Assembly: GCA_002633005.1 (NCBI GenBank)
Contig: NMRA01000843.1
Span: 1-64,000 of the forward strand
Length of the DNA: 64,000 bases
DNA from: Phoronis australis
Lineage: Eukaryota > Animalia > Phoronida
Direction: 5' to 3'
The translations under genes were made by a program, and so were the position numbers. Position 1 is the stretch's first letter; every line of letters starts with the position of its first letter. Positions 18,176 to 59,022 of the stretch are shown here, one piece after another. The notes under the pieces were generated by a model that was given only the letters and a program-made list of their open reading frames with translations, was not told the DNA's origin and searched no databases.

Positions 18176-18480
18176 GTTATGTTAGCAAGATGTTAAGCTG
18201 TCTCGTAAGCTGGCCTTAGGACTTGGGATGCCGTAGTTGAACATTTTTGTGTGTTTTGGGTTACCATAGAGATAACCTTCAGAGTAGTCACCTTCCATTT
18301 CTGAGAAAATGCGACGAGCTGCCGCGTGTTTTGTATGCCTTCTAGCTTCACAGTAGACCCCTCGACATTGCAGAGGAAGTTGACTTCGCAGTGCGATTTT
18401 CCATTCATTAATCGTTTTCCTCTCCCACTCCCACCCCACCGATCTCCATGCAAGATGCCATAAAAATCAGTGTTATCTGT
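18176..18480 (-). pseudogene. Penelope-like RT, 5' part, continuing into 15490-16100
   Basis: GYLYGNPKHTK (YGxPKIHK motif), then in the adjacent frame SQVLRPAYETA*HLANI (PTYxxAKxL motif). Confidence 0.7.
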
Positions 18481-25272: not shown

Positions 25273-25545
25273 TTAAGATAAAACAGAACCACCTTGGAAC
25301 CGCACAACTGCGTGCATACTTGTACCATGGAAAATGTCCGCCAGCAGGCCAGGACAATTTTCTAGAAAGAATTCATAAATGAACTCCATTCTCACTCTAT
25401 GTTCTCTGATGATACTTGAAAGAAGCTGTTTGTGTGTAGTGCAACACTGCTTCACTTGTAATAGATAAGGTTACAATACCCAACAATGGAAGTTGAAAAT
25501 ACAAATTGAAACATGTTTTACTCGTCTCTTAGTCTACCTCTAGTG
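25273..25545 (-). pseudogene. Internally deleted remnant of a second FAM111-like copy
   Basis: REHRVRMEFIYEFFLENCPGLLADIFHG parallels [28 protein letters not shown] of the last exon; 25436-25545 matches intron sequence at 32825-32925. Confidence 0.8.
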
Positions 25546-28687: not shown

Positions 28688-31600
28688 TCACACTACACGA
28701 GCTGGCTTTTTTCCACGGAAAATATCTGCACACAAGTCAGCGTGATTATTTTCTAAGAACTCGTAGACACACTCCATCCTCACTCCCTGCTCAATAGCAT
28801 CAAGATGAAATTCCCCAGGCGCCACCCTTATGAAATGTCCGCACGAGTGCATGACGGCCACGCACGCCCGTTTTTTGTGGTCAGCTACAAACCCTGGACT
28901 TCCTGAGCTGCCGTTGCCGAATTTTTCGCTGGATTGGTAAAGCGCTCGCCGTTTGTCTGTTATTTTCTTGAACACGTCGTTGTTATATTTCCTGTGTAGC
29001 CCAAGGAGCTGTAAGTATAACAAGGAGCTGTACATGTAAGTATAACAAGGAGCTGTAGATGTAAGTATAACAAGGAGCTGTAGATGTAAGTATAACAAGG
29101 AGCTGTACATGTAAGTATAACAAGGAGCTGTAGATGTAAGTATAACAAGGAGCTGTACATGTAAGTATAACAAGGAGCTGTAGATGTAAGTATAACAAGG
29201 AGCTGTACATGTAAGTATAACAAGGAGCTGTAGATGTAAGTATAACAAGGAGCTGTACATGTAAGTATAACAAGGAGCTGTAGATGTAAGTATAACAAGG
29301 AGCTGTACATGTAAGTATAACAAGGAGCTGTAGATGTAAGTATAACAAGGAGCTGTACATGTAAGTATAACAAGGAGCTGTAGATGTAAGTATAACAAGG
29401 AGCTGTACATGTAAGTATAACAAGGAGCTGTAGATGTAAGTATAACAAGGAGCTGTACATGTAAGTATAACAAGGAGCTGTAGATGTAAGTATAACAAGG
29501 AGCTGTACATGTAAGTATAACAAGGAGCTGTAGATGTAAGTATAACAAGGAGCTGTACATGTAAGTATAACAAGGAGCTGTAGATGTAAGTATAACAAGG
29601 AGCTGTACATGTAAGTACAACAACGTGATTTCGTAAACAACAGGTTAAGAACATGCAAGATGCAAACTGTGACTGACGATTATTGAAATAAAACAATAAT
29701 CGATATACGATTTAATTTTAAGAATATATTGAAGGACATAAAAATGTCAACCTTGTTTCCAAGAAAACTGAAAGAATTTAAGCCAGTCGCCTAAGCATCT
29801 TTTCTCTGAACTCACGAGAGAACACCGATATATTTGAATTCAGTGAAATCTCTTATCTCACTAGCACTCGACTGGCAAATTTCTAGTAATGCTACCGATA
29901 TAACTTATGTAAAAAATCGTCCATCCTAAATTGTACTGTAGAACTAGTTTAATTGGTTGTATTTAAAAATGGACAGGTGTACACCGTAGGTCACACCCTA
30001 CTCATTCTGAGTGACATAATCAATGTTATCGCACCTTTTGTGTATTGTGTGGCGATGTACAAGTACGGTCAATTGTACACTGAGTATCCAAAACTTTCCC
30101 GTCACCAGTTGGATGTCCAACAAAATGAATACATTCCTGCCCATCGATAGTCGCAAAGTCAGTAATAGGCGGTGGAAGCGAGTATTTATTGGTCGTCTCA
30201 CACTCGCTGAAGGCTATTGGAAGTATCGCGTCGAAATCAAGGTCTAGGACGGCCACATCGAGGTCCTCGCAATGAGCCAATATGGCGCGGATAGGCGCTG
30301 CTCCGACACCGTCTGTGCCCAACAAGCGAGGCTTGTCGAAATGGAATACTGCCACGTTCTCCTTGGCTGTAAAGTACATATTTGAAATGATCAACAAACT
30401 GGTGTATCAGCTCATTAATGCATTATAGAATGCACTAAATGACTCCACATGACGTGCTGTAATTATAGATTACCCGAAATACATACATGCAGGAATACTA
30501 CAGTCATACTTTATCTAGAATTCATTTCATCTTTGAATGTTTCTACTCGACTTTTGGTCTCGTTGGGATATTTCCAGATGAAACGAATTCAGGAAAAAAA
30601 ACCCGGGCCTGCAAAGTGACCAAGATAATCCTTGATGTTAAGTATCAGTCCACGGATCCACCGACCACTGTACAGCCAACAAGCGGCAAGGTGGGGGGTC
30701 AGCCATTCAGATCCATGTTTAGTCTGATAAAACACATTAGGGATGAGAGAAAATGGGTGAAGTATGACACCACAAAGTTTGGTGGTTTAGGAGATACAAG
30801 GGAAGTGTTGTGGGGGGCAAAATGAGGCAATTTCTTGGTGTGGAATGAGTCATTTTTGACCAAATTTTCTACTCCAGTTTCTGCTTCAAACAGAATNNNN
30901 NNNNNNNNNNNNNNNNNNNNNNNNNNNNNNNNNNNNNNNNNNNNNNNNNNNNNNNNNNNNNNNNNNNNNNNNNNNNNNNNNNNNNNNNNNNNNNNNNNNN
31001 NNNNNNNNNNNNNNNNNNNNNNNNNNNNNNNNNNNNNNNNNNNNNNNNNNNNNNNNNNNNNNNNNNNNNNNNNNNNNNNNNNNNNNNNNNNNNNNNNNNN
31101 NNNNNNNNNNNNNNNNNNNNNNNNNNNNNNNNNNNNNNNNNNNNNNNNNNNNNNNNNNNNNNNNNNNNNNNNNNNNNNNNNNNNNNNNNNNNNNNNNNNN
31201 NNNNNNNNNNNNNNNNNNNNNNNNNNNNNNNNNNNNNNNNNNNNNNNNNNNNNNNNNNNNNNNNNNNNNNNNNNNNNNNNNNNNNNNNNNNNNNNNNNNN
31301 NNNNNNNNNNNNNNNNNNNNNNNNNNNNNNNNNNNNNNNNNNNNNNNNNNNNNNNNNNNNNNNNNNNNNNNNNNNNNNNNNNNNNNNNNNNNNNNNNNNN
31401 NNNNNNNNNNNNNNNNNNNNNNNNNNNNNNNNNNNNNNNNNNNNNNNNNNNAAAAAAACTGTTCGTCTTCCTCATCTGTAGTTGTTGTACCACATGCCCT
31501 CTGTTGTCTCTTACAGGAACTCTTGTCTGCAGATCGCTGGTAAATGCTGGTGGAACAGTTCAGATATGAGAACTTTAAACTACATCAGTTGAGCAGTGAC

Positions 31601-34600
31601 TCTATCTTTGTAGTTACATTACAAGCTGGTCTGTCGGCACTTAAAACACCGTATCCTTTGTTTAAGTATGTCATGTTTAGCATGGAGGAGTAATTCAACC
31701 CTGCTTAAAGTGGAACTTGCCCACAAATTTCCTTATCTGTGTGATTGCTTTGTCAAATTAGTAAAAATCGCAACATGTAGCAACAATGTGAATATGAAGT
31801 AGGTTGAAAATTGCCAAATGTTTTCACGAACGAGTTTTGTGTCAAAAGTGGTCCGTCATAAATCACTAAACCGTATCCAGTGTTGGGGAAATAACACTGC
31901 CTGATGCAGGTTATGTGAGCCCCCAAGGTTCATCATTAGTTCAATAATTTTTTTATTTTTACATTTACAAATTGTCAACGAATACAACTGCACTTTGTTT
32001 AGCATAGATGACGTTCAAATAGCATTGTCGTTTAGTTCCTGTTAGACATTAGCATAGTTAGAAGCGTGCAAATACATCTTTAAGGTTATATGGGACCTTA
32101 ACGGCTTGTCTTTGTCTTAAGCCAAATATCAACAAAAGTATAAATTTAAACTAATTGAGAGCGTGTATTTTCGAATGTGGAAAGCCTGNTGAAATCTCTT
32201 ATCTCACTAGCACTCGACTGGCAAATTTCTAGTAATGCTACCGATATAACTTATGTAAAAAATCGCCCATCCTAAATTATACTGTAGAACTAGTTTAATT
32301 GGTTGTATTTAAAAATGGACAAGTGTACACCGTAGGTCACACCCTACTCATTCTGAGTGAAATAATCAATGTTATCGCACCTTTTGTGTATTGTGTGGCG
32401 ATGTACAAGTACGGTCAATGGTACACTGAGTATCCAAAACTTTCCCGTCACCAGTTGGATGTCCAACAAAATGAATACATTCCTGCCTATCGATAGTCGC
32501 AAAGTCAGTAACAGGGGGTGGAAGCGAGTATTTATTGGTCGTCTCACACTCGCTGAAGGCTATTGGAAGTAAGGCATCGAAATCAAGGTCTAGGACGGCC
32601 ACATCGAGGTCCTCGCAATGAGCCAATATGGCGCGGATAGGCGCTGCTCCGACACCGTCTGTGCCCAACAATCGAGGCTTGTCAAAATGGAATACTGCCA
32701 CGTTCTCCTTGGCTGTAAAGTACATATTGGAAATGATCAACAAACTGGTACATGCTACCCAGCCAAGTAGACAAGAAGAAAAAGAGTTTGTTTCCTGATG
32801 ATAATTGACAGAAGCTGATATTGTGTAGTGCAACACAGTTTCACTTGCAATGGGCGTGGTTATAATGCCTGACAACGGAAGCTGAACATACAAATTGAAA
32901 CATGTTTTATCGTCTCTTAGTCTCTGACGGCTGTCGATAATAAGGTGTATCAGCTCATTAATGCATTATAGAAGGCACTAAGTGACTGCACTTGACGAGC
33001 TGTAATTATAGATTACCCGAAATACATACATGTAGGAATACTACAGTCATACTTTTTATGATCGACATATGTCCCGAAAAATAGATAAATGATACGTGCG
33101 TCGCAAGCTCGTTACCAGAGATGAAAGGAGATTGATGTAGGAGATATAAGGTCATTTATTATGACTAGTACAATTACAATAAAATGAATACAGGTAAATA
33201 AGTATAACAGGTAATCTCTGGTAAGATGGGCAATAAAAAGCGCCGGCCACGTGGAAGTACGAGAGAATGACGAAAACTGGGAGGAAGAGGGTGGGAAAAT
33301 TGAATGAGTTTTTGACGTACGACAATGTGGCCGGAACAAAGTGAATTGAAAGCGAGGTTACAATAACAAAGTAAAACGCCCCTAAAGACACGTGACAATC
33401 ATCAGCCTATAAGAGCCAAGAGCTGACCAAACTCGAGGCACGTGATAACAACAGACCAATGCGAAGGCTGGAAAAACGTCGTGTAGTCCTGCACGAGGGA
33501 ATAATGGAATAGACCAAGATGAGGGGGAAAAGNNNNNNNNNNNNNNNNNNNNNNNNNNNNNNNNNNNNNNNNNNNNNNNNNNNNNNNNNNNNNNNNNNNN
33601 NNNNNNNNNNNNNNNNNNNNNNNNNNNNNNNNNNNNNNNNNNNNNNNNNNNNNNNNNNNNNNNNNNNNNNNNNNNNNNNNNNNNNNNNNNNNNNNNNNNN
33701 NNNNNNNNNNNNNNNNNNNNNNNNNNNNNNNNNNNNNNNNNNNNNNNNNNNNNNNNNNNNNNNNNNNNNNNNNNNNNNNNNNNNNNNNNNNNNNNNNNNN
33801 NNNNNNNNNNNNNNNNNNNNNNNNNNNNNNNNNNNNNNNNNNNNNNNNNNNNNNNNNNNNNNNNNNNNNNNNNNNNNNNNNNNNNNNNNNNNNNNNNNNN
33901 NNNNNNNNNNNNNNNNNNNNNNNNNNNNNNNNNNNNNNNNNNNNNNNNNNNNNNNNNNNNNNNNNNNNNNNNNNNNNNNNNNNNNNNNNNNNNNNNNNNN
34001 NNNNNNNNNNNNNNNNNNNNNNNNNNNNNNNNNNNNNNNNNNNNNNNNNNNNNNNNNNNNNNNNNNNNNNNNNNNNNNNNNNNNNNNNNNNNNNNNNNNN
34101 NNNNNNNNNNNNNNNNNNNNNNNNNNNNNNNNNNNNNNNNNNNNNNNNNNNNNNNNNNNNNNNNNNNNNNNNNNNNNNNNNNNNNNNNNNNNNNNNNNNN
34201 NNNNNNNNNNNNNNNNAAACCTAACGGTAAAGGGTCGTTACCGGAAAGCGGCGGCAGGCTGTGAGGTAAAGCAGGAGGTAGCGGTCCAAGTCCGGTGGCG
34301 GAGACAGCAGTAGGCTGAGGCGCTGGTGCAGGGGCGGTGGTCGATGAAGAAGAGAGCGATGGCACAGGAGTGGATGGCAGCAGTAGTAACTTTATCTAGA
34401 ATTCATTTCATCTTTGAATGTTTCTACTCGACTTTTGATCTCGTTGGGATATTCCCAGATGAAACGAATTCAGGATAACATATTATAGTAGTATACCTAT
34501 ATACATGTATGTAAGATAACCTATTTAGGCCTAACACACACACACGCACGCACGCACGCACGCACGCACGCACACACGCACGCACACATGTGTGTGTGTG

Positions 34601-37588
34601 TGAACATTTGTTTCGCGGCGATATCTTATTGTTATATGTGCTTTGGCGTGTTGTTACATGAAGTTATATCTATATCAAGCCTACTCACGCGTGCAAAGTG
34701 ACCAAGATAATCCTTGATGTTAAATAACTACTAAAGTTTTATTTCACATTGAATTTGATAAGAATTTTCACTTTGTGAGATATTCAAGTTAAAACGATGT
34801 TCAATCATAATAAAACTTGATACGCATGTGCGTGCAGCAGTGTGTCGCTTTGGCTTTGATGATTATCGTAGATTCCTATGTTTATTTTCCTGTCGCATGT
34901 TTTGGAATGAAAATACAGCTGTAGTAATAGAAATGTTTCCCTGTTGATGACAACACAGGAGAATAACGGTGTTTGAGGCAAAAGGAAAGTATCCCAAAAA
35001 GCAGATTTTACGTTACCAGGAGAGCCTAGGAATGCTGTGAGCACACGATTGTCTTTAAAAAATGCATACTCGATATTAGGCTGCAATTAGCTGTAAATAG
35101 TATTATTTCTAAGTTAATATATCCTGTATCCGTCCATAAGAAAAACGTTTTCGTTTGATTTGAATGTGTTGTAATATCGTGTATCAACCCACTCATGGAA
35201 CATAGGACGCAATAAATGACTCCACTTTAACCTGCAAAAACATTTTGGTCCTTTAAACAAGGGCAGGAATCAACAATTGGTCGGAGTTGGCGGACTTGAA
35301 AACCAGTCGACTGGACTGCAAAAAAATGGCCGGGGTCAAACATGTTGTCAGAACTTCAAAACGCGATAGCCTCACTTAAAAAGAACTACTTGGCTGGACC
35401 CAAAACACGATGGCCGGTGTTATAACCAGTTGGCTAGAGAACACACACAGCGGTGGGACTTCCTCGGAATTTGGATTTGAATGTCTCGAAGGATTCACGT
35501 GTCATCTAATGTTTACTTTTCGTACCCGTTTGTTTTGCTCAAATTTTTTCGGCCATTGCGTTTGACCATCGACCAAACCGCTTTAATTCCGGCCAACCAG
35601 TTCTATTTTTGGGTTCGGCCATCTGGTTTTGGGGTATCCGCCAATCCGTTTTGAGGTCCGACCATCAAGTTAAAACACCAGCCATATTTGGTTTTGCACT
35701 CCAACCAACTGGTTTTGAAGTCCAGGCAAGTGATTTTGAAGTACGGGCAAGTGGTTTTGAAGTACGGGCAAGTGGTTTTGAAGTCCGGACAAGTGGTTTT
35801 GAAGTACGGGCAAGTGGTTTTGAAGTCCGGGCAAGTGGTTTTGAAGTCCGGGCAAGTGGTTTTGAAGTCCGGGCAAGTGGTTTTGAAGTCCGGGTAAGTA
35901 GTTTTGAAGTCCGACAATTGGTTTTGAAGTCCAACCAATTATTGATTCTCCTTCTTGTTAAAGCTTCATTTCACCTGTTTACTTAGATAAAAAAGAAAAT
36001 CGAATTAGACATTGTACTCCCCGAGGTCAGTCTCATTACATAAGTTTCTTTTTGCTACAAAGAAAACACAGAAACCATCAGTGACACAAGAGAAAACGCT
36101 TCAAAGTTTACTACAGTTGAACCATTTGAAAATGGCGCTGCCTTTGACTCTAGTCGTTGTGGGTTACGAGGTTCTTGTGGGTAACGGAAACGGAATCCTA
36201 TCACGGTCAGACCAATCTTGACATAGTAAAACGAGCAGTTCGATTGATGCTTTAGTTATTTTTTTTTAATTTGAATTATATGCGGATTTGATTTGGATAG
36301 AGCTCCTCAACATTTTGAATGTTGCCCTTTACAATGTATCAATTATTTAACTTTGCTTCCACAATTAATTGTCTACACTTGTTAATTTAGATTTGTAATA
36401 GTACAGCTCACTCCACTTTGACCATAAATTGTCAAATATATTCATTTATACCTTTAAATGCATTGGCTTTATTTTGATCAACACAGTTTTGTTATTTTAT
36501 ATTCTATACCAGGGTAGCCATTTTGATGTTTTTGCCGTCTTATAAGTAATATTAGTTGTCACAGTGTTTAATCCAGTTAAGTTGGAAGACCTTCGACCTG
36601 CACCTGCAACATCCAATACACTGACAATATGAACAGATGAGCGTGTTTATGGCGGGCTGAAAAATGAATTAAAACCGTACCTCTACACTGACTGTAAAAA
36701 TAATTCATTTGTATATTGGTGTACAAAATTGGTAGACAGTCTGGCAACCATGTATTTGTGAACTATTAGACAGATGGCGCTACCAACACATAGCGTACAT
36801 CCAGGCTAAGGCGACACAGTCACCGAGTGCCTTGACGCAGACTAGACTGGTCTCTCACTAGTCAGAAAAGTAACAACGTAGTTCATGCTTGAACCCCAAT
36901 AGTTTTAAACTACCAGGCAGCTATACATAAGTTTATTTATAAATAAAATGTTGTTCAAACAATAGCAAATTTGTACTTACGTTCATAACTAAGTCCTTTT
37001 AATACGTGACAGTTTGTCATGACGTAAGTTGGACCAACACGGAACCCAGATCCCACTCCTGTGCCGTCTGCTTTTGCCAATAACACTACGGATTGGAGAG
37101 CGTCAGAAAGAGACTTGTGTAACCGTGCCGACATCACGTTCTTACCAGGAGCAAGGAATTGTGTCGTTGAACCGGTAAATTGTGTAGGAGACTGTATGAG
37201 TGGGAAGTAATCTGGAAAATATAGAGTTGGTTCATGTAGGAACTCTTACGCTGAAACTGGAATAGAAACAGAAATTCGTTTATCAAATTTGACTCCTTCC
37301 TTGAACTTTACAATTACCTGACTGCCTGATAACCAACTTCAATATGTCCAAGTCACCGTCGTTTCTCCTTTTTACTGTGAAGCTGACTTCCGCCTCACTG
37401 TCGGGGATGGTTTTACCTTTTGAGCAGGCATAACGTTCGAGCATTGAACTCAACTGCTTCTCATACGGTGCAGCACTCGCCCCAAGACCTTGCTCCGATG
37501 AATCCGCAGTCGCTCCTACAGGCACGTGGGATGGCATTTCATCAGCCTGTTCAACACTTTGGTCCATCCTTCGACCATTTTGTTCCAT
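28688..37588 (-). CDS. FAM111-like: FAM111-like trypsin-type serine protease, ~384 aa; exons 37588-37318, 37211-36981, 32712-32381 (or 30366-30035), 29008-28688
   Basis: All introns GT-AG with matching phases (1,1,0); catalytic motifs GSGFRV..VMTNCHV (H), DLDVAVL (D), GSSGSP (S); FAM111-typical [21 protein letters not shown]. Confidence 0.9.
29002..29616. repeat. 25-bp minisatellite, ~24 copies, with C/G alternating 50-bp higher-order unit, overlapping the last acceptor of the FAM111-like gene
   Basis: Unit caaggagctgta(c/g)atgtaagtataa; the first unit is shortened to 19 bp. Confidence 0.98.
30035..30366 (-). CDS. Second intact copy of FAM111-like exon 3
   Basis: 332 nt with the same acceptor (tttacag|) and donor (aag|gtgcga) as 32712-32381; three amino-acid differences (L/I, V/I, R/G). 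Confidence 0.85.
31517..31650 (+). pseudogene. MAEA: Isolated MAEA (CTLH/GID E3 ligase subunit) exon with an in-frame stop
   Basis: cttacag|[44 protein letters not shown]|GTATCCTTT; matches the MAEA segment recalled as RW..L..QFRYDN..LHQL...[15 protein letters not shown]; TAA at 31541. Confidence 0.85.
33056..34388. mobile_element. Insertion with 5-bp target-site duplication ACTTT, spanning an N gap
   Basis: Empty site 'cagtcat-acttt-atctag' at ~30501-30518; filled site has acttt at 33051-33055 and 34389-34393; Pro/Ser-rich minus-strand frame at the right end. Confidence 0.65.
34535..34602. repeat. (CA)n/(CGCA)n microsatellite followed by (TG)n
   Basis: Directly visible. Confidence 0.95.
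35705..35935. repeat. 21-bp minisatellite, ~11 copies, inside FAM111-like intron 2
   Basis: Unit gtggttttgaagt(c/a)cgggcaa. Confidence 0.95.
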
Positions 37589-37774
37589 GTGTTGCTGAAG
37601 ATGACATTGTGAAATGAAAGCAATTGGCTATTTTCACACACCAAACGCTTCAAACGACGAGCATGCCCAAGCACTACGAAACACTATGAAACCTCGTCAA
37701 CTTTGATTATCAAAAGGGAACAGTCAAGACCAAATGTCCAGTTGTGCAACTATGTTTGAGTGTTAACAGCGGCC

Positions 37775-37915: not shown

Positions 37916-40514
37916 CTAATTGTCAACAGGTAGCGCTTCATACGTAAACAAGCCGGCATGATGGAGGAAGTGTAAATGTGGATATAGTTTGTGGTCAACT
38001 GAAGACAAATCGGTGCTTAATTATGGGGGTATGTTCAAGACGATTTTGACACTGTAGAGAGAAAAATTGGTTCATAAAGATGTTCACAAGGCTAAAAATT
38101 GTTCACAGTCCGCCATCACCTTTCTTTGTTGTAAAGCTAACCAACGACTGCCGAGACTACATCAACTATGACACATGCTGCTGAATGATAACTGCAAGTA
38201 CCTTTCCCCCTAACGGACACGCAGGGAACCAGCGAATGAATTAGTAATTCGTCACGTGCAATCAAAGACAAGTTTACATTGAAATATACCTGTTCCAAAC
38301 ATGTACGTGGTCACTTGATAGAAGTCTGCAACGTAAATTCTTCAAAAGTTGCCTTGCGCCGTGTAGAAAGTCGTACGTCCGTCAATTTGAGATTTTTGAG
38401 TTGGGGTGTGATTGGACTATATGAATTGACTAGACGTATCGTTGAATAATCAAAGTGTAAGTTGATTAAAGAAAACTACGCGTTGGATAAGCTAAAATGC
38501 GCGTTGAGAAAGAGCAGAACGATGGTCGTTTAAGAAACAAAATTATGCGTTGATTTAGCACATTTCGACGCGCAGAAACGTACGCATTTAAGAACATTTT
38601 GATGCTTAATAAGTGTAGATTGGAAACATTCCGGATTAGTCTATATGTTGGACTATTGCAATGGCGTCCGGAGATTGTGTTAGAGATTACAAATGTCATT
38701 TCAACAGGAAGTACTAGAGCTGCAAACGCAATTAACCGTCATGAAACGGAAACGGTATTGTTTTTTCGTCTCTTGAAATACAAGAAATGCATATAACTGC
38801 CATGCTAGCAAAATTCGGAAACCTCTACCGATCATCATGATCTATTGATTGCTCTGATTACGAGTTTGAATTGGATATGATTTTCCGCCAACTAGGAGCA
38901 CTGCTCATCTTCAACATGACAGTACCACCCACCATGACATTGATAACGCGCAACTGACAGTCTATAGACCAAGCAACAACCGTGGCCTTGACTCACGCCG
39001 ACTTCTTGTTTCCTGTCCCCTTTTCATATTATGTCCGTCACGAGGTATGTGGCGTAGCTCCCTCTGGCGATGCTTTAAGTTACAAAACGAATCACCTGGA
39101 GCCTGTGGATATCGTTTTAGATGTGGTATGGTTTCTTAAAACGCTTATTCTTAACTCTGCACGTGAGATATGTTTCTTTGGGTGGTCTGATGATAGCAGT
39201 ACTAGTAGTAATGAGGACCAATATTGACAATGTGGTCGTGATATCAATAACAAAAACAACCAAGTTACTAGCTATGATGATATCGTCTGCGTATCAACTC
39301 ATAAACTGGTTCATTACTTTGTACCTTAAGGAGGTTCTTTATTTCTTCCTTCCAACAGACATCGTAAGCAGTTTTTCTATTCTGTAAAATACGTATTTTA
39401 ATTCAGATTAAAAATTAAAATTAAAATGGGTATTAATTTTAAGTCAAAACTGCACTACACAAAACACTTGACCTCCATATGTATTCATGTTCATACATTT
39501 TGCCGTTTCTGCAAGGTTTCATAGTTTGGAAGTTGAGACAAATCTAAGGCTTAAATCAGTTTCTTGAAGAGACCAGGGTGTGAACCACTTTTGGTTCATG
39601 ACCTACACTTCGATGAGTTGTAAACAAAGCGTATGGATCAGATGACGACGCTGAAAATTGATTATAAGCTACAGAATGACATCATCAACTGAAGTCAACA
39701 CACGCTCTGCATCCTTATCTATTATGGTTAAACATATTTTCAATAGGTTCGACTCATCTGCATGAGGAGGATACATATACTTGAGCACCCCGTCAAAGAC
39801 AGTTGAACTCACGGTTTCCTACAGCTTTGTATTGCATGCATGAGTCTTGTAGAGTAGTTATATTGGAAAATGCCCTGAGGCTTTTGTCTTTAGTTGTTCA
39901 CCCTTGAGTGTAAATAAAACTTGCTGAGTAACATTAGTCAATAACATTATATTATCTACTGCACAAAAAGTGGCTAAACCTTTATCTTTCCAATTCCGTA
40001 TATAGTCTTACAGTTAGCATAGTTTGCCAACAAAGTCTTCCTAAACATGCTAAGAATTATATGGTGACACTTGGCTTACCTCACAGCCCAACTGCCACCT
40101 GCTGGTTTAGTAGTTGATGCAGTTATGTTGTACATCCACCAGATTTAATGAGAAACATAATGTATCAATGTTTTATAATGTTAGGTTGCAAGTCACATTT
40201 CTAGTCTTATTTTGAAAATTTCAAAACCTGACATCGTACACTTTTTGCGAACTATTCCCCTATGCTATTTAAACACTTTCAAAACGAAAATTACAAAAAA
40301 AACTTCTGTCGCCACCAATGTGTTAATGATGAGTCTAATTATCTAGTGACTGATAACATCAGCAGCCTGTGGCGTCCAGACCGATGTAATTGCCTTCAAC
40401 TGCATTGTGTCTTTGATCTTTGCTGCAGACTTTACGGTACGTAAACTGGTCGATACGCCCAATGAAGGTCAAGTGCTACCTGAGATTCCTTTCAAAAAGA
40501 AATTGCATCATTCG

Positions 40515-47607: not shown

Positions 47608-50600
47608 TTAAACACGGAGTCCAACACTCTTTACGGCAGTCACGTCACAGCGGCCTTTAATGATTAGAAGCTTCACCACCGCTGCGTGTCCTACCTCTGA
47701 CGCCATGTGTAGCGGTGTGTCACCCCACTACAGCAAGTTGATCAGCATTATATATAGCGAAATGGGTGGCTCAACAGGGCGTCACGTTTTATATTTTTCA
47801 AATTTAAAACGTCACCATCATTTGCATATTTATGACATCGGTGGATCAACAGAGCGTGACCACAACCTGACGTTTGAACTGCACACAACTTGAGCGAGAT
47901 TTCTTAAATGTTCGTCTGATGTGTTGTAGTCGCGCATTGAAAACATAATTTTAAGTATGACAACTTGATGTTATATATTACAACACAGACATTCATTTAG
48001 TGAGTACTGTGGAAATGCAAGTAAATACTCATTGTACAACTCCATGTGACCTGGGCCCAGTCTCAAATCTTTTTACTCGAAATGGAACTCGAAATTATGT
48101 TTGGCATGTTTTACTCTACTTTTGTGCGAATTCAAGATAAGTGGCTATTTTTCTATGCTCAAGTGCACAATGACTTACTTGGATAATTTATGAATCCTAG
48201 TATGCAGTTCATAAACCCACCAACAACAATAAAGCTAAAAGTTCGAATTTAAACTCGAAAATTTCGAGTTTTTGCTGGACTTTGTAGCACGAATGTCAGG
48301 GTCTTCAAGTGCAAAGTTGGATTAGAAACTCATACGCATAAACTATACTCATTCGACCACTGTCTGATAACCACTTATATTGAGAGTTGAGTTCTTACAA
48401 AAGGAGCTGAGAAACTGCCAAAATCTTGAGTTCGTTTCAAGTACAAAGATTAGAGACCGGGCCCAGGACCTGAAAACTGTTTCTAAATACTTAAAACCGC
48501 GAGCAAGTCACGTCACGTGCACGTCACGTGGAGTGCAAGGAGAAATATCAAAATTACAATGAAATCATCAATGGTGATTGATTAATTAAATCACCAATGA
48601 TTCAGCCTAGTCACGTGTTGTGCGTTCAACATCGTTGTGTAAACAAACAGTTCAATCAAACAACCCGTGTGTCATTAATTACCTCAGTGCGGACATTCAC
48701 GTTGGCCCCGTGTTGGAGGAGACACTCCACTGTCTGTGTATGACCATACCCTGCTGCCCAGTGCAGCGGTGTCCAGCCCTCCTATGTAATATATAATGGA
48801 GATGTGTGAATGGACGATCAACGTTTGGAGCTTATTAACATACACAGGGGGAAAGTGAACTTGTAAGGTGACATAAATGAAACATCACTGACCCCTCCAA
48901 GGTGCTAATACTTGTAATGATGTCAACAGGGAAATGTTAAGTTTTACAACAAAACAACAGGTAACACAGGTAAGTCACACTGCATTGTCTACGCAGCTTT
49001 GGTGGTTCACGAACGGAAGGCAGACGACATTTAATTTGACATTGTTTGGGGGCATTAAATTGTAAAAATATCAACAAAATTTGTCGTCATCAGTTTTAAA
49101 CATCGTTTGTGTAATCAACTAGATCAACCAAACAACTTGTGTGTCATTAATTACCTTATCACGGACATTCACTGTGGCGCTGTGTTCAACTAGACACTTC
49201 ACTGTCTGTGTATGACCACGCCCTACTGCACAGTGCAGCGGTGTCATGCCCTCCTATGTAATATATAATGGAGATGTGTGAATGGACGATCAACGTTTAG
49301 AGCTAATTAACATACACGGGAGAAAGTGAACTTGTAAGGTGACATAAATGAAACATTACTGACCCCTCTAAGGTGCTAATACTTGTAACGATGTCAACAG
49401 GGAAATGTTAAGTTTAAGAACAAAACAACAGAACCTGGTTAGTGTTTCGTTTCTCTTTACTGGGCGGTAACACCTGTAGTAATTGTGCGCTGTAACGTGT
49501 TGGACAACCCCAGTGTAATGTATGTCTAGTGCTAACGAATTAGGGGTACTTTAATTACCTTATATATCATTTACCTGTACAGGTAAGTCATACTGCATTG
49601 TCTCTACCAGTCTACGCACTTTTGGCGATTCTCAATCAAATCTCGAATGGAAAGCAGACGACATTTAATTTGACATTGTTTAGGGACATTAAATTGTGAA
49701 AAATCAACAAAATTTGTCGTCATCAGTTTTAAACATCGTTTGTGTAATCAATTACATCAACCAAACAACCGGTGTGTCATTAAATACCTTATCACAGACA
49801 TTCACTGTGGCGCTGTGTTCAACTAGACACTCCACTGTCTGTGTATGACCACACCCTGCTGCCCAGTGCAGCGGTGTCTGGCCCAACTATGTAATATATA
49901 ATGGAGATGTGTGAATGGACGATCAACGTTTAGAGCTAATTAACATACACGGGGGAAAGTGAACTTGTAAGGTGACATAAATGAAACATTACTGACCCCT
50001 CTAAGGTGCTAATACTTGTAATGATGTCAACAGGGAAATGTTAAGTTTTACAACCAAACAACAGGTAACACAGGTAAGTCACAATGCATTGTCTCTACCA
50101 GTCTACGCAGCTTTGGTGGTTCATGAACGGAAAGCAGACGACATTTAATTTGACATTGTTTAGGGGCATTAAATTGCAAAAATACGAACAAAATTTGTTC
50201 TTCTTCAGTTTTAAACATCGTTTGTGTAATCAACTACATCAACCAAATAACCTGTGTGTCATTAATTACCTGAGTAGTGATATTCACTGTGGCGCTGTGT
50301 TCAACTAGGCACTTCACTATCTCTGTATTACCACACGCTGCTGCATAGTGCAGCGGTGTCATCCCCAACTATGTAATATATAATGGAGATGTGTGAATGG
50401 ACGATCAACGTTTAGAGCTTATTAACATACACGGGGGAAAGTGAACTTGTAAGGTGACATAAATGAAACATTACTGACCCCTCTAAGAAGGCTATAATAC
50501 TTGTAACGATTTCAACAGTCAAGTTTTACAGGTGATTTTAAAACGTTGCAATAATAACATGGTGCAGACGTGGACTGCCAGAAATTACTAAGCGCCTCCA

Positions 50601-50945
50601 TAACTTGACAGCGACCCCTCCATGTTGTGTTTATGCTCCGGTTTAGTGGCTTCCTGTTTAATGTAAAGTTGTAATGTTGAATGGACGATTGCCATGAAGA
50701 ATAAAAAAGTATCAACGTTAAGTTGACATATATATTGTTGACACGATTCAAACCTCACTGTTTCTTAACATGCATGTACCCTACAGCTTTTGTAATAAAG
50801 ATAACATGGCCTTATTATCAAAATTGTATCAAGTACTTTCTATTACCTTGTCTCGCATGTCTACATCGGCCCCACCCTGTAACAATACCCAAACCACTTC
50901 TGTGTTGCCCCGCCATGCTGCTTCGTGTAGTGGGGTCTCGCGGTC
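47608..50945 (-). CDS. Ankyrin-repeat protein, one repeat per exon: 50945-50847, 50368-50270, 49886-49788, 49253-49155, 48781-48683, 47727-47608; 5' exon(s) not located
   Basis: Five 99-nt phase-0 AG/GT exons: DRETPLHEAAWRGNTEVVWVLLQGGADVDMRDK; LGMTPLHYAAACGNTEIVKCLVEHSATVNITTQ; LGQTPLHWAAGCGHTQTVECLVEHSATVNVCDK; EGMTPLHCAVGRGHTQTVKCLVEHSATVNVRDK; EGWTPLHWAAGYGHTQTVECLLQHGANVNVRTE; last exon WGDTPLHMASEVGHAAVVKLLIIKGRCDV.. reads to TAA followed by AATAAA. Confidence 0.92.
48050..48467. mobile_element. PIF/Harbinger-like MITE in an ankyrin-gene intron
   Basis: ~45-bp imperfect TIRs cctgggcccagtctcaaatcttt..actcgaaatggaactc / gagttcgtttcaagtacaaagattagagaccgggcccagg; CWG-type flanks. Confidence 0.75.
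48655..50515. repeat. Tandem array of ~480-bp exon+intron cassettes (4 units; unit 2 has a ~150-bp insertion)
   Basis: 'aaa(c/t)aac..gtgtgtcattaa.tacc' recurs at ~48657, 49130, 49763 and 50244; introns nearly identical. Confidence 0.95.
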
Positions 50946-52102
50946 CTGCAGAAACAATGAGCAAGTTATAGCAAGACTCACAATCACTAACTTCACAGTG
51001 CATCTTAATTACTCGTCACCGAAACTTTTAAATAACACATTTGCAAATGAAATTACCAATTCTACTCCCTGTTTAAGAGGTACATGTAATATAACAGACG
51101 TGGTTGGAATAGATCATCATTTTTAAAGAACGAGGTTACGTCGCTCTCGTAGTACGTTTGATAATGTCAATAGTAATTCTCAGAGTTAAGACGCAGCATG
51201 TTCTTTTATAATATGAACACTTTTATCAAAGTCCGGACGACTGGTTGTAGCCAGCTGACTGTTATTGACGAAAACGTGACCTTGATATTCACACTTAAGA
51301 ATCAACTTAACGAGGACGATTCCATAAGAGTAAAAGGTTTAATTCAATTTTGGATTTTAGCCAGCTAAACAGTACGAAATGCAGTTTGTCAGAAAATCAT
51401 TTTTGGTAATAATATGAGGTAATAAGCGACTTTGTTGATATGCTCAGTACATGTACTGTGTAGGCTATACATGAAAGATGCGATTATATCAATTAAACCT
51501 GTTCTTATCAGTAAATCTACCCAAGACCAATCCATGCCGGGTGCATCAATTGAAAACCATGGTTAAACTAGCTTATGACGTCCAGTCTCAAGCAACTGGA
51601 AATTTATGCCACTTTTTCCGAGTTCCAAAATAATTTCTAACGAATCTCAGGAACAAACTGGAATAGAGAGATGAGAGAACATCAATACAGGGTTAATATA
51701 TCAGAATGGGATATCTAAGTATGTCAGGAGAACATCGGTTAGGCAATGTTTCGTCTTGCCGTGGGTGCAATAATGATTAGGATCACAGCCACGGTATAAA
51801 CACTACAAATTTAACACATGTTGAAACACATTTTACCAAAACCTTTTTTCTGATCAAGATCCCTGTAAATCAATCAATCATATAGTTTCCATTTCGATAC
51901 AAATCCAAACAGTCAATTGCTCTGTTGTAGGTCTAATGAGACTTGAAACGACGAGACAGTGGTCTGGCCAGACGAAGCGGTGCTTTTAAAAAGAGCGCTT
52001 TGCCGGCCAGTTTTCACGTGTACACGCGATAAATTGATACATTTGCCTGTTCTTGCATATATTTAAAGGGGCATTTCATCATAATTGCAAGAAACTGATT
52101 AA

Positions 52103-52434
52103 TACGGTGGCTGTAAAAGGATTGCAAGGCAACTTTTTTCTCCGTTGCTAACTCTATCTACATGTGTTGACTTAATATCCATATCGATAGAGTTGTTAGC
52201 TATCTATCAATAGAGACTAGTAAGTCTATAGACAGAGAAACTAAGTATATCGATAGAGTTAGTAAGTCTATCGATAGAGTTAGTAAGTCTATCGATAGAG
52301 TTAATAAGACCATTGATAGAGTTAGTAAGTCTATCAATAGAATTAATAAATGTATCGCTAGAGTAAGTAAAGCCTGTCGACAGAGCTAGCAACGGAGAAA
52401 AAAGGTTCCGTGCCGTCCTTTTACAGCCACCGTA
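52103..52434. mobile_element. MITE with TACGG termini (IS3EU-like) and an internal 21-bp repeat array
   Basis: TIRs tacggtggctgtaaaagga..ttttctccgttgcta / tagcaacggagaaaa..tccttttacagccaccgta; internal (atcgatagagttagtaagtct)n; no TSD seen. Confidence 0.75.
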
Positions 52435-53289
52435 CTTATGTAACGGTATGATTACTCCAGTTTTTATGGCAAGCAACTAAGGAGCAAAAATGTAGAACAT
52501 CTTGAGTATTAGCTTCAATTTGATTTTCCGCCACGACTAGCGGACCTAACGGTTACTTGGTCAAAAAAATAGAAAAATCATTGATAAGTACAAAATACGA
52601 CGAGTAGTATTAAAATAATGAACAATTTCATAATAGAATAAAGCATCGATGCCTATAATAATAATAACATGTTCCGCAAAACATGTGTTTGCTTGAAAAC
52701 TATCTAAATAATATCTTCAAACCTTTATTATTCATTAAATATTGACCCTCGTAAAAAGTCGCGTGTATGTCTAATCATAGAAAATTCTGGAAATTCGACA
52801 TTTTACATTCACACTGAAATAACAACTCCGCCTGATGAAGAATAAGCAAACGTCATTGCGTTCGCTTTGAGAAATGAATATTTAGTTGGCAACATAACAG
52901 TGACGTAATATGTACAAAATGAAATCAATTGCTGGACTTAAGGATTGAGTTCGATTTTGCACATTTTATTTACTCAACTGGATGACTGAAAGCATTTATC
53001 GCATAATATTGACGAGAGCATAAAATGTAACAACTTCAAGTTTACGTCGCTCTCCCTTACTTTGCAACTGTCATTGGTAGCAATTCACAGACAAGACTGT
53101 CCTTCCAGTCAGTGACCTAGTGGGATGTTCACTCACAAGTGATCACTCGACTTTCATCAACCGAGTGCCCGTGAAAATCTTAATAACGTCTTAGCTAAGA
53201 CCGGTCGCATGGCCATGATAAAAATGTTCCCATTTCAAGACCAAAGTTACGTCGTCTCTGTTAAGTGATACACTTTAGAATCTTGCAAT

Positions 53290-53385: not shown

Positions 53386-54589
53386 TGCCTACATGCAAAG
53401 GCTGCTGAAATTTGCAATAAAATATTATTCGTGCTGGAGACGGTTATTTCAAATCACGTCACTTAAAGGAATGGAAAGAGATTAAGTAGGTGCTAAAAAC
53501 TGAGTGAGTGCATACATTAGTTAAAAAAAGTTATCTTAGTACATTCCTCTTGCGCTCAAACGGCGATTGACCGTTGCGCCATTGCGACGGACATTCAAGG
53601 TGTTTGAAGGGTATTACGTAACTGTCACAACCGTCAAAACAGTGTGTCGATTTTTGGCACCTGGGACACTTTGGGTCACACATTAATAGCCAGACCAAGT
53701 CTTTCGTGTGATGTCATGACACAGACTTCAATTGTCTACCACGCTGAATGAATACATTAATGTAAATCCGGAAAATATTATTATTGGGGACAAATAAAAC
53801 AACACAAGAATGAAAAATATTTTAAGCTGTACTGGGAATTTAAGGGTCGCAGCTCTACAAATAATTATTTCACAGAAGGTACCAGATGGGTACCTTAATT
53901 ACAAGAGATAACACAAAAATATACCGTATGCCGTCTGAATACGAACAGTCCAGATCAACTGACAAATTTGCCACATGGACAGGGTTGCTAAAATAATCAA
54001 CCTAAAAACAAACTTTGGTTCAATAACAACGTCAAATGATAGATAAGCAAAACCAATCAGTTCGATTACAAAGATCAAACCAGAAAACAAAATAAAATCC
54101 GCTGATTTTTCAACGATATAAAAACTGTATGTACATGTAGCTGTACAGCTAGTAATTTGTAATTCAAGCTAAACACGAAAACAACATCAAACACTTTCCA
54201 GATATAAATACTGTTTTCAAAACACAAAGGAATATTGCTCATTTATAAACAAAATGCGACCAACGAACAGAATGTTATTAAATCACCAGCTAGGAATCAC
54301 AAAGCACAGCCTGTGTGCTTTATTCTTGGATAACTTCAAAAATATAGGATGTGCCATCTGAATACGAACAGTCCACATCAACTGACTAATTTCCAAGAGC
54401 TCGTTGCACAAGTCGGACATTTGCTAAAAAACAATGATATAAGCTACAGTCTAAAATGTACCGATCATATAACAAATAGCAAAATATTTAAACAAATATA
54501 AAAGACATGTCTCCTACAACTACTCATTTATTCAAAAAAATTTTACTTACAAATTGAAAAATGAATTTCATGTTTTACATTTAATTTCT

Positions 54590-55450
54590 AGATGTGACAC
54601 GCTCGTTTGACGTGGTTTCACATGACCACCCATGAGCTCTTCTTGCTCTTAAGGAATATCGTTCACTCTGCACACACTATTTACTTCATATTACCCCCAA
54701 TCGAGTAGTACAACTAGACGGTGTGTTTTCAACACCCCTAACCCCGGTGTTGTCAACGTAGAGTTCGCAAGTGTCTTGGGGCCTCTGTTGTTTCTGCTCT
54801 ACATCAGTGTGATTCCTTCAGACATCAGCTCGAAAACTTCATTTATATGCTGATGAAACAGCCATATTTAATCCTAGGTACCCGAATTAAACACGGACCC
54901 ATTTTCCTATGAACTTGAATGGTGAAATTATTCTAAAAAAACATTCGCACAGAAATTTAGGCATTATAAGACACGATTAACTTTCGTTTGTACCACACTG
55001 CGGGCAAAAAAATGAAATTTTAATCAACCTAAGCCTATTGAAAATTTAAACTCTTTGAACGCATTTTATATCATTTTGTACACCCCATTTTGACTTTGGT
55101 GACATAATATACCAAACAGTAGGACGTTTGGTTCAGCTGGACAGATAACAATATCAGGCTGATATAGCCATTACTGTTGTTATAAAAATTTCACATACAA
55201 TAAAAAAATCTAAACTAGTCCAAACTGTTAATGCAATGAAAACTTCATTGAAATGTTTAAACACATAAAACTCTAAACAAGGTAAATAATATATTCAATT
55301 AAAAAACTTTCGAAAAACGCTAAATCAGGTCGACGTTCGATAATATTTATCTTAGTTCAACCGTCTCACATTCGAGTCATTCTTAAATCCACAATAATCA
55401 TTTGCATAGTGACAAGGAACACACTTCCAACCGATATGATAAATAGCAAT
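54590..55450 (+). pseudogene. Decayed CR1/L2-group LINE RT (second copy at 59460-60320)
   Basis: FDVVSH, SVLGPLLFLLYI, YADET motifs, then a frameshifted 'FVHPIL.FGDII'-like motif. Confidence 0.7.
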
Positions 55451-58400
55451 TCCGTATCATTACTAAAGTCTAATTTTCATGAATACTTTTTAAAAAAATA
55501 TTAGTCCAAGAGTTACATTCAGCCATACACATCGTGCAAAACGATATTTTCTGAACAGATTTTGATCAAGATTATTGTTGAACTCTGAAAAATTCAGGTA
55601 CGGTTTTCAGAATTTGTCTTCCTTACGCAAATGTGAAACTACACAAAGCGGTCTGTTTCTAATTGTTCGTACTGTCATGGATTGTTTGCGTGGTCGTTTT
55701 TCGGGACCCTAAAGGGTGTCAAAGATATGAAAGACAAAATAACAGCGTTCCATGGGAGATTGATGAATACGCGTTTCTAACAACTGGATCTGCTCATAAC
55801 TGTCCGAATGGTGTCAATCAATGAAGTTGCCAATTTCCTCCATGTGTGCATGGCTTTATACAAAAATACAGTAGGTCTGCTAATCACATCACTTTGTCAA
55901 AGTTTGATTGTGTTTTTCTTACCAACATATCTGTGTTCACTAATAATGTAAATTTCAAAAAACTACTTCAATATCGATAACTTGGGTAGCTGAATGGGTA
56001 CATATCATTATTACTGTTTTACATTGTTTCTATAAGTCACTTCTTCATTGTTTACCTGTTGCTCAGGTAAATGGGTATCTATTGTATTTACCTAATGTCG
56101 TGAAATAAAAATAGTTTACCTTGTCGAGCGAATTATTTTAGACAGTGTGCAAAAGAGGCGATGTCAAAAATATGTGGAGACAAATAATTCCCCTTGCAAC
56201 GGTCCGATCACTTTTACTACATACAAACATGTTGAAGTTTAACCTCTCTACAAAGTTGTATCAATATAACATTTCACGACTAGACCACTTCTACTTGGGC
56301 TGGTCTTTAATAAAACACGACGAGTAATATCAAAATAAGGTGAAAGTACAATGACTCGGGCCTGATTTTTGAGTCCGCGATTTCAAAAACTCTGAAATCT
56401 CGGAAACCACAAAAAATCAACTTGAATGGCCAATTATACGAAACTTCGAGTACTTGCCGCTAATTACGCTTAGAGGGAATAATACCATAGATTCTAGTCT
56501 GAGCTCTTGGAAAAAAACAACGTTCTATGTAGTATTTTGTAGTCATTCATTCACTCAAACGTCAACTGATATGAAATAAGGTGATGCACTGATGCCGTAT
56601 TTTCCTTACAAGCCTCAACGATATCGCAATGCAGGTCAAAGGTTGGTGGGGGGTGTATGGTGAGGTCGACACGAGGTGTGACCGAGGCTATAAAGCGGAA
56701 CACTTACCTTTGGTAAACCGTCCTGATCAATTAACGGGGCATTAAATCATTGAATTAAGTAAAAAACAAATTTGGATTTCGAACACTTACCATTACTTAC
56801 TTAGTTGACCGCACATTTACATCAATTATGCTATATTTGGCCAAAGGTAGGTGGGGGGAATATGTTTCTCGCCAATCCTGTTTTGGTAAAAATACACCAC
56901 GCGTTGCTACATAACACTGAGCCAAAATTCGACGTTTACAAATTTAACCTTTTTGGAACTCGTTAATTATGTTTTAAAAGTGCGGTTTAATGCTTAATTA
57001 TATTTTGTTTTTGATCAAAAAGCAACAAAAGTTTGTTTCAGTAGCTCATGGTGACCGAGAGGAACATTTACAATTTGTTTTCTCTGAATGCACAAATTTC
57101 GCAAAGTGATCAGATTGAGAAATGCAATTTTATCTTAATGCCGCCGCAATTCAAGAAATACATACATGTATGAAGGCGTGTTACGTCAAACCAAACAACA
57201 AAAGAATGTGTTGGAATTTGATTGTAATTAACAGGAAATATTTTCAAGAAGCCGAAAGTCACTTGTTTGACATTTTTAGACGACATTTCTCGGTCAACAA
57301 TACTTTCTTTAACTTCCACTAACAGTGTCACGTGACCAGTAAATGACCATTTTGATCATTACACTGAAATGTGACACGGTTATGACACCGCGGCCGTATA
57401 AAGACTTCTGCGGCATGACTTGAAGTTATTTTTTAGTTTACTGTGACTTGCTTCACCGATAATCCCTGCTTTCAATGTCCTTGAAATTTACAAAGTCGGT
57501 GGGAAATCGGGAATGCCCAAGACTTCTAATCGTCATTATATTTTATGTGAACGGATTTTCATTTGGTACTCCACTGTCGTAGCGACACAAGGGCTATTGA
57601 AAGAGACAGAGAATTGGCTATTTTTATGCTCTATTAAAATGCTGTTACTTAGAAACAGATTTTTTGTGAAGACTACGCGTTAACGTAATCGTTCAAAAGA
57701 CATCAACATCCCACGCCCCCGAGGTGAACAGTGGTTCACACTCACCGGCCAACACAGTCTGATAAAGAATAAATCTACTCATCAGAACTATGCTGACATG
57801 ATTGAGTGATAGTGTTCCCGTCTGAAATATCACAACAGGGTCAGGTANNNNNNNNNNNNNNNNNNNNNNNNNNNNNNNNNNNNNNNNNNNNNNNNNNNNN
57901 NNNNNNNNNNNNNNNNNNNNNNNNNNNNNNNNNNNNNNNNNNNNNNNNNNNNNNNNNNNNNNNNNNNNNNNNNNNNNNNNNNNNNNNNNNNNNNNNNNNN
58001 NNNNNNNNNNNNNNNNNNNNNNNNNNNNNNNNNNNNNNNNNNNNNNNNNNNNNNNNNNNNNNNNNNNNNNNNNNNNNNNNNNNNNNNNNNNNNNNNNNNN
58101 NNNNNNNNNNNNNNNNNNNNNNNNNNNNNNNNNNNNNNNNNNNNNNNNNNNNNNNNNNNNNNNNNNNNNNNNNNNNNNNNNNNNNNNNNNNNNNNNNNNN
58201 NNNNNNNNNNNNNNNNNNNNNNNNNNNNNNNNNNNNNNNNNNNNNNNNNNNNNNNNNNNNNNNNNNNNNNNNNNNNNNNNNNNNNNNNNNNNNNNNNNNN
58301 NNNNNNNNNNNNNNNNNNNNNNNNNNNNNNNNNNNNNNNNNNNNNNNNNNNNNNNNNNNNNNNNNNNNNNNNNNNNNNNNNNNNNNNNNNNNNNNNNNNN

Positions 58401-58724
58401 NNNNNNNNNNNNNNNNNNNNNNNNNNNNNNNNNNNNNNNNNNNNNNNNNNNNNNNNNNNNNNNNNNNNNNNNNNNNNNNNNNNNNNNNNNNNNNNNNNNN
58501 NNNNNNNNNNNNNNNNNNNNNNNNNNNNNNNNNNNNNNNNNNNNNNNNNNNNNNNNNNNNNNNNNNNNNNNNNNNNNNNNNNNNNNNNNNNNNNNNNNNN
58601 NNNNNNNNNNNNNNNNNNNNNNNNNNNNNNNNNNNNNNNNNNNNNNNNNNNNNNNNNCCCGTTTGAAATACACTGAAGTAACGAAATGAGTACAGAAAGC
58701 GAATGGAAGTATTGTAGCCCCTAG

Positions 58725-59022
58725 ATGGCCCCGCGTTGGTTTGAATGCGCTAAATCTCCCCTTACTCCCAGCTCTCCTAATGTTGTTTATCCATTTTTCA
58801 CGAAATTCTTGGCTTGCAGGGAACTCATAAAAATTCAGATTTTTATCTCTCTTGTTGTTTTTGAAGCAGCCAGGAACACAACAAGTGTATTCGCCGTAAG
58901 TTTTCTTCGCGCTCATACCGCTTATTATGCTTGTTACTATGGCCGCTTTCGGAATCCTGACCACAGCACCCACAATGCACCATTTTAACCTAATTTCAAC
59001 ATGGCGTCGCTGCAAATCCGCT
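58725..59022 (-). mobile_element. Left end of a THAP-domain DNA transposon (ISL2EU/Harbinger-like); THAP ORF from ATG 58916, truncated
   Basis: MSAKKTYGEYTCCVPGC..LNFYEFP..REKWINNIRR..FKPT; final CxxHF missing; terminus AT|AGCGGATTTGCAGCGACGCCATG abuts sequence that is uninterrupted at ~54160. Confidence 0.75.

Follow-up and report, generated by a model that had tools for sequence, protein, structure and literature searches.

What does a row of near-identical ankyrin exons, set between near-identical introns, encode in the genome of the phoronid Phoronis australis? The row lies at positions 47,608 to 50,945 of the window analysed here, i.e. the 64,000 nucleotides (nt) from position 1 to 64,000 of contig NMRA01000843.1 (assembly GCA_002633005.1). 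The window is ~38% GC and intron-rich, and carries gaps elsewhere, with 34217-57847 gap-free. An original prediction, made from the DNA letters alone, saw an ankyrin gene that diversifies at its binding surface. The array is real, expressed at the family level and more structured than first reported, being the front of an ankyrin-protease gene, the protease half of which that prediction missed. The gene runs past 47608, down to 28688. The reading favoured here, with a probability of roughly 0.55, is that the array forms the front half of a spliced gene in which ankyrin repeats and a trypsin-like protease domain are united in one protein, that its repeats are likely reshuffled and diversifying, and that the product is likely an intracellular sensor-protease engaged in a conflict such as immunity. 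That array and protease constitute one gene is very probable. Unequal exchange combined with diversifying selection on the repeats is probable, as is an active protease. The immune sensor-effector role, suggested by analogy, has about even odds, and the intracellular location is presumed from what is generally known of ankyrins.

Structure of the cassette array

Six ankyrin exons, A, c1, c2, c3, c4 and T, follow each other on the minus strand (Table 1), and all six score above the gathering cut-off of the Pfam ankyrin family (PF00023; 34.8-49.6 bits versus 21.1). Exon A and the cassette exons c1-c4 each comprise 99 nt in phase 0 between AG and GT, and c1-c4 lack any stop codon. The four cassette exons are thus present where they had been predicted, and the variable residues quoted for them are correct in the translations. 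A plain satellite is rejected, as the cassette exons are open and spliced. The repeated unit is an exon plus an intron, for which a period of about 480 nt had been proposed; this holds for two of the three intervals (482 and 472 nt), while c2-c3 measures 633 nt owing to an insertion of ~150 nt in its intron. The three full introns differ pairwise by 4.6% (c1-c2 versus c3-c4), 6.0% (c1-c2 versus c2-c3) and 6.5%; divergence is 0.8-4.2% over the 120 nt that precede each cassette exon. All four cassettes share one and the same 25-nt acceptor context (no match in 100 shuffles), and a search for this pattern in metagenome contigs gave no match. The cassette exons differ pairwise at 9-27 of 99 nt (72-90 identical), and exon A shares 47-51 of 99 nt with them. 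Aligned as two-cassette blocks over 791 nt, c1-c2 and c3-c4 reach 89.5%, suggesting that a pair of cassettes was at some time duplicated together. At the informative sites all three possible four-taxon splits are backed equally (three sites each). This fits the mosaic ancestry expected from exchange among cassettes, as originally envisaged; recurrent change at contact codons could contribute.

A profile built from 211 natural repeats and run against 3373 six-frame peptides of the window revealed no ankyrin exon beyond the known six, the half-repeat cap exon described below being missed by it, and no significant inverted or dead ankyrin repeat in the introns. A short HGADVD peptide in intron A-c1 (50561-50600, plus strand) resembles an inverted ankyrin remnant but is not significant (iE 52). 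Between c4 and T, at 48050-48467, lies what is likely a dispersed miniature transposon, with inverted ends of 33 nt and RNA coverage from both strands.

Amino-acid change at contact positions

The changes between cassettes had been predicted to cluster at the positions randomised in designed ankyrin libraries. According to the available text of the two sources, these are positions 2, 3, 5, 10, 13 and 14 (PMC3308923) or 2, 3, 5, 10, 13 and 33 (PMC4308713), and their union (2, 3, 5, 10, 13, 14 and 33; 7 of the 33 repeat positions) was taken as the contact set. These seven positions hold 12 of the 23 extra amino-acid states (exact p=1.8e-5). At the nucleotide level 13/21 contact sites are variable, compared to 18/78 in the scaffold (p=0.0011) and 26/202 aligned intron columns (p=1.6e-6). 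The clustering is hence as predicted, and the positions are those that engineers randomise. As far as the accessible text of PMC4308713 tells, the contact positions rank among the most variable of any ankyrin; since they are tolerant in all ankyrins, neutral controls, i.e. introns and synonymous sites, are needed. At contact codons, 11 of 14 first and second positions vary, versus 2 of 11 fourfold sites (p=0.004). The mean proportion of nonsynonymous differences (pN) is 0.445 at contacts and 0.121 in the scaffold, that of synonymous differences (pS) 0.128, and introns range from 0.05 to 0.065. Between c2 and c3 alone there are seven nonsynonymous contact differences and no synonymous one in ~23.5 sites. 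At six positions outside the contact set, as variable as the contacts across the 211 natural repeats, there are 0.67 extra states per position, versus 1.71 at contacts. Amino-acid change at contact codons thus exceeds that at both intron and synonymous sites.

The variable positions coincide with those of the designed libraries (2, 3, 5, 10, 13, and 14 or 33; available text of PMC3308923 and PMC4308713). In contrast to these engineered sets, variation here extends to position 1 and to several places in the scaffold, there are four cassettes, and the binding face is a predicted one; a 'natural DARPin' (designed ankyrin repeat protein) is therefore an analogy only.

Expression and order of the cassettes

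RNA was available from three stranded runs (three samples of one study, 18-19% of each read) and from one contig set, X5, of guessed RNA status, all from other individuals; 15 of the 93 cassette joints and all seven protease-side joints are listed. The depth over the cassettes is almost wholly minus-strand, and the spliced transcripts that the original prediction called for are found. Exon c3 is joined to c4 with canonical ends in 3, 5 and 15 reads, and a c1-to-c2-like join occurs in 0, 2 and 3 reads and one contig. A-to-c1-like and A-to-c3-like joins occur in X5 contigs only; the latter, from this single contig set, has a changed first codon and may represent another allele or gene. For the candidate start exon, stranded RNA depth is 4-7.5 in its 577-nt bin, with no junction read among the joints listed.

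The RNA also contains cassette orders that are absent from the window, namely c3-to-c2-like (9, 11 and 4 reads), c3-to-c1-like (16 reads in run X8) and c2-to-c2 (one contig). Residues new to the window appear in the decoded junctions: R, S, D or G at position 3, V at position 5, and GQ, DR or NK at positions 1-2. In joint tables alleles, sister genes, exon skipping and back-splicing look the same, and these orders and residues may be any of them. The cassette exons are several-fold deeper than the protease exons (141/123/374 at 49225 versus 35/42/49 at 37177), suggesting that there are sister transcripts or longer arrays. Intron A-c1 (50369-50846) likewise carries minus-strand RNA, 27/44/191 at 50555 versus 16/5/17 in exon A. 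These reads mostly have a 5-nt insertion in X7 and X8, and one X5 contig is unspliced over 50376-50780. The signal may mark a first exon or untranslated region in sister transcripts; an ATG occurs in c1 at repeat position 5.

The proposal that the divergent flanking exons act as caps does not stand. Exon A is an ordinary full repeat, and T as a terminal cap is rejected, as it is bypassed by reads that join c4-like exons to a cap-like exon further downstream; joins of T itself are absent among the 15 of 93 listed. If unspliced, T reads through to a stop at 47608, and it is classed here as an optional or degenerate exon.

Cap exon and protease half

The cap exon, 9.3 kb downstream, is joined to c4-like exons by 10/5/6 and 3/1/17 reads (two rows; sum 13/6/23), and in turn to exon P1 by 7, 2 and 10 reads with canonical ends; P1 is joined to P2 by 18, 11 and 21 reads. 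Loose read ends at 36981 (37 reads in X8, three contigs in X5) match the first 30 nt of P3 at 32712, the X8 consensus agreeing at 27/30 by eye. Splicing hence proceeds from the cassettes via cap and linker into the protease exons P1-P3. The ten-exon model reads through 570 codons uninterrupted by a stop, and each of its internal junctions is flanked by AG/GT. It places the motifs TNCHV, DLDVAV and GSSGSP at His345, Asp390 and Ser499 of the partial model, i.e. in trypsin order, with spacings of 45 and 109.

In a feature search with P3, trypsin clusters came first at 0.91, and the best named matches fell 10/10 in one clan. In single-exon scans P3 and P4 had no Pfam match, and the second P3 copy reached Trypsin_2 at E=0.18. 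P4 folded alone from a single sequence gave a predicted local distance difference test (pLDDT) score of 48, too low for use. The 92-residue P1 linker had no match in Pfam, and P1 as a ubiquitin-like (UBL) domain was rejected for lack of a match. One match to a protease-exon query among 1.84 billion representatives, a repetitive protein, was judged spurious. Searches against PDB sequences gave weak matches only, the most relevant being a membrane-associated serine protease (E=1.2). A c4 query recovered 65 generic ankyrin proteins among 69 candidates, none with a trypsin domain. No STAND NTPase (NACHT, NB-ARC) or Roc-COR domain occurs in the exons found along the splice chain from ankyrin via cap and linker to protease, the 5' end of which is a candidate only.

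Several features adjoin the protease exons. P3 is duplicated (29844-30403 versus 32190-32749, 97.5% over 560 nt) beside gaps, as either a haplotype duplicate or an alternative exon. A 25-nt tandem array of 24.6 copies (29010-29623) abuts the predicted P4 acceptor. A minus-strand fragment at 25276-25470, 50% identical over 34 residues to the P4 end, is left over from a second, downstream copy of the protease. A 99-nt exon-like piece at 31571-31669 (plus strand), with a weak CTLH match (E=0.0085) and presumably resembling MAEA, lies within the protease gene on a short contig bounded by gaps, and is possibly misplaced.

Table 1. Exons and introns of the ankyrin array and of the protease half, from 5' to 3' on the minus strand
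Feature	Position	Strand	Basis and remarks
Candidate start exon (putative)	51521..51657	-	ATG at 51535, five codons, phase-0 donor; strong acceptor; in phase with A
Exon A, divergent full ankyrin repeat	50847..50945	-	99 nt, phase 0; Pfam; A-to-c1-like joins in X5 contigs
Cassette exon c1 (LGM..Y..AC..TTQ)	50270..50368	-	Pfam; AG/GT; c1-to-c2-like RNA join
Intron c1-c2, 383 nt	49887..50269	-	Alignment to other cassette introns
Cassette exon c2 (LGQ..W..GC..CDK)	49788..49886	-	Pfam; AG/GT
Intron c2-c3, 534 nt, ~150-nt insertion	49254..49787	-	Alignment
Cassette exon c3 (EGM..C..GR..RDK)	49155..49253	-	Pfam; AG/GT; RNA depth 141/123/374 at 49225
Intron c3-c4, 373 nt	48782..49154	-	Canonical-end removal in 3, 5, 15 reads
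Cassette exon c4 (EGW..W..GY..RTE)	48683..48781	-	Pfam; AG/GT; RNA joins
Exon T, divergent 34-residue ankyrin repeat, weak in-frame donor	47626..47727	-	Pfam; in frame with c4 and cap exon
Cap exon, 57 nt, phase 0, half ankyrin repeat of C-cap type	39325..39381	-	xxxTAYD motif; cap label by eye; RNA joins
Exon P1, ~92-residue linker	37318..37594	-	RNA joins; no Pfam match
Exon P2, start of trypsin-like domain, catalytic-His motif TNCHV	36981..37211	-	RNA join; Pfam Trypsin_2 below cut-off
Exon P3, Asp motif DLDVAV and FVGHP	32381..32712	-	Loose read ends; feature neighbours
Second copy of P3, 3 residues differ	30035..30366	-	Trypsin_2 E=0.18
Exon P4 (predicted), catalytic-Ser motif GSSGSP and stop	28688..29008	-	Phase fits P3

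Other features of the window

Two pairs of near-duplicate blocks are present, 367-2961 versus 11100-13675 (89.5%, inverted) and 54162-56783 versus 59023-61691 (95.6%, direct). At 52098-52439, inverted arms of 65 nt flank a 21-nt palindromic tandem array. The window further contains a THAP-domain open reading frame (ORF; 58659-59024, minus strand), a remnant of a non-LTR (long terminal repeat) reverse transcriptase (16224-18181, minus strand) and a PAN-domain ORF (7651-8094, plus strand).

Comparison with known systems

Ordinary animal ankyrin genes, e.g. ANK1, also carry one repeat per 99-nt phase-0 exon with the boundary in the beta-hairpin, but there with repeats of ancient origin and introns that cannot be aligned. 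The P. australis gene resembles ANK1 in exon size, phase and boundary, and is unlike it in that the cassette introns are 94-95% identical. Closer parallels in organisation are found outside animals. In the brown algae, ROCO proteins with leucine-rich repeats (LRR; PMC3341825) and NB-ARC proteins with tetratricopeptide repeats (TPR; PMC11378527) are, in the text available of these sources, candidate receptors with one repeat per exon, shuffled and diversifying, for which immunity is proposed. The gene shares with them an own exon per repeat, probable shuffling and diversifying selection of the repeats, and the fusion to an enzymatic module; it differs in having ankyrin rather than LRR or TPR repeats, a trypsin-like protease rather than Roc-COR or NB-ARC, and no significant inverted or dead intronic repeats. 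In fungal HNWD and other nucleotide-binding leucine-rich-repeat-like receptors (NLRs) of high internal conservation, gain, loss and shuffling of repeats are ascribed to unequal crossing-over and conversion (available text of PMC13449251). Near-identical repeats combined with few hypervariable ligand positions, the mark of such sensors, are found here as well (72-90 of 99 nt identical; p=1.8e-5). Unlike HNWD, the exons found include no NACHT or NB-ARC, the repeat unit includes an intron, and the effector is a C-terminal protease. The gene thus works like both classes and belongs to neither.

On the protease side the nearest comparison is FAM111. Like FAM111A and FAM111B, the gene has a C-terminal Trypsin_2-type domain with the order His-Asp-Ser intact and a similar spacing, 45 and 109 residues here compared to 54 and 102 in FAM111A (available text of PMC9798293). 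Unlike FAM111, its N-terminus is an ankyrin array, and the word 'ankyrin' does not occur in the main text of that FAM111 review. The pair of N-terminal UBL domains typical of vertebrate FAM111 is absent, the N-terminal part consisting of ankyrin repeats and a Pfam-negative linker; FAM111-like proteases of marine invertebrates are, in the accessible text of the same source, also without UBL domains. FAM111A was not matched at E<=10 when single protease exons were compared to PDB sequences. The gene may or may not belong to FAM111, and any resemblance beyond the triad is presumed.

Proposed mechanism and alternative explanations

With one phase-0 repeat per exon between near-identical introns, mispairing followed by unequal crossing-over or conversion would add, drop and mix repeats in frame. 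The cassette introns would be alike, and the frame kept, because the repeat exon is the unit of recombination, while selection would keep positions 2, 3, 5, 10, 13, 14 and 33 different. About six stacked repeats and the cap would form one concave groove, the specificity of which shifts with cassette content. Binding of a target would recruit the substrate, or would dimerise and release the protease (FAM111A is reportedly dimerisation-dependent; PMC10920703), and the protease would then cleave either a host effector or some foreign protein.

A number of observations weigh against the reading as a diversifying sensor-protease. The scaffold, predicted to be near-invariant together with the introns, is slightly more variable than these (18/78 versus 26/202, p=0.044). 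For whole exons pN exceeds pS modestly (0.196 versus 0.128), scaffold pN being about equal to pS. Four copies give low power, and pairwise rates are non-independent. Junction tables reveal changes near junctions only, so that the RNA variants are biased to positions 33-5 by construction, and no c2-to-c3 join is among the 15 of 93 joints listed. In all three samples the RNA reads carry fixed differences from the window within P1 and may therefore stem from other alleles or sister genes; what the junctions prove is how other alleles, or the family, are built, which need not strictly hold for the window's own copy. The P3-P4 link is predicted from phase fit. P2 scores below the Trypsin_2 cut-off (18.8 bits, E=0.0029, versus 27.6; single exons scanned), and homologue searches with the protease exons returned 0/194 candidates and 0/88 at E<=10.

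One explanation for the same gene and the same diversification is a driver other than a pathogen, either a fast-evolving self partner, as in allorecognition or gamete or germline conflict, or mere substrate targeting. The present data point to no ligand, and the HNWD repeats of fungi, which bear this signature, are known from allorecognition (available text of PMC13449251). However, repeat-plus-protease architectures come mostly from anti-invader systems (PMC8195603) and FAM111A is antiviral (PMC9798293), which, by analogy and on the accessible text of both sources, makes a driver of this kind unlikely. Less likely again is an origin without positive selection, in which conversion homogenises the introns, the contacts are merely unconstrained and the multi-base differences are patches from older sister genes. 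The high variability of contact positions in any ankyrin (available text of PMC4308713; the 211 natural repeats) would fit this, the introns are more alike than the synonymous sites (5-6% versus 13%), as expected of conversion, and the excess of cassette over protease reads makes donor genes likely. Copied neutral patches should, on the other hand, bring synonymous changes along, whereas contact codons exceed the synonymous sites interleaved with them (11/14 versus 2/11; seven versus none for c2 and c3), and equally tolerant non-contact positions vary much less.

The window copy, its protease perhaps inactive, could also be a minor or decaying member of the family, with most cassette transcripts arising from sister genes that end differently. 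The depth excess of cassettes over protease, the high stranded depth in intron A-c1, the fixed differences between reads and window, the residues of the cap exon (NRK in the window versus GGE or GGK in reads) and the second protease-end remnant at 25276-25470 all agree with this, but the intact frame of 570 codons, the canonical splice sites and the presence of all three catalytic motifs render it improbable. That c1-c2 and c3-c4 are two haplotypes assembled in tandem would suit the 89.5% alignment of the two-cassette blocks and the other near-duplicate blocks that adjoin gaps in the window, but is highly improbable, as 34217-57847 is gap-free, what comes after c2 is a complete cassette intron, not c4's unique flank (giving at least three cassettes on one haplotype), and both c1-to-c2-like and c3-to-c4 joins occur in RNA.

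Significance

A literature search, with most subscription papers and supplements outside its scope, found no description of shuffled hypervariable ankyrin exons joined to a protease. Exon-per-repeat shuffling with hypervariable contacts is known for the LRR and TPR receptors of brown algae, and without introns for the WD40 and ankyrin NLRs of fungi; here it is combined with ankyrins and a protease output. Going beyond the sensor-protease reading of this one locus, a speculative and rather doubtful extension would be that the gene belongs to an enlarged animal family encoding intracellular sensor-proteases; one-repeat ankyrin exons would pass between its members or be exchanged inside one gene, and their combinatorial splicing would give each individual a repertoire of its own of DARPin-like binders, each wired directly to a trypsin-like effector without immunoglobulin domains, LRRs or STAND NTPases. 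The locus lets one ask of a natural protein whether evolution, too, changes the ankyrin positions chosen for randomisation by engineers, and assays of ligand and activity are straightforward, the cassettes being small and the domains soluble. If the product is an immune sensor, it would add a route from recognition to proteolysis to invertebrate defence, and would hint at the coupling partners of the UBL-less FAM111-like proteases of invertebrates.

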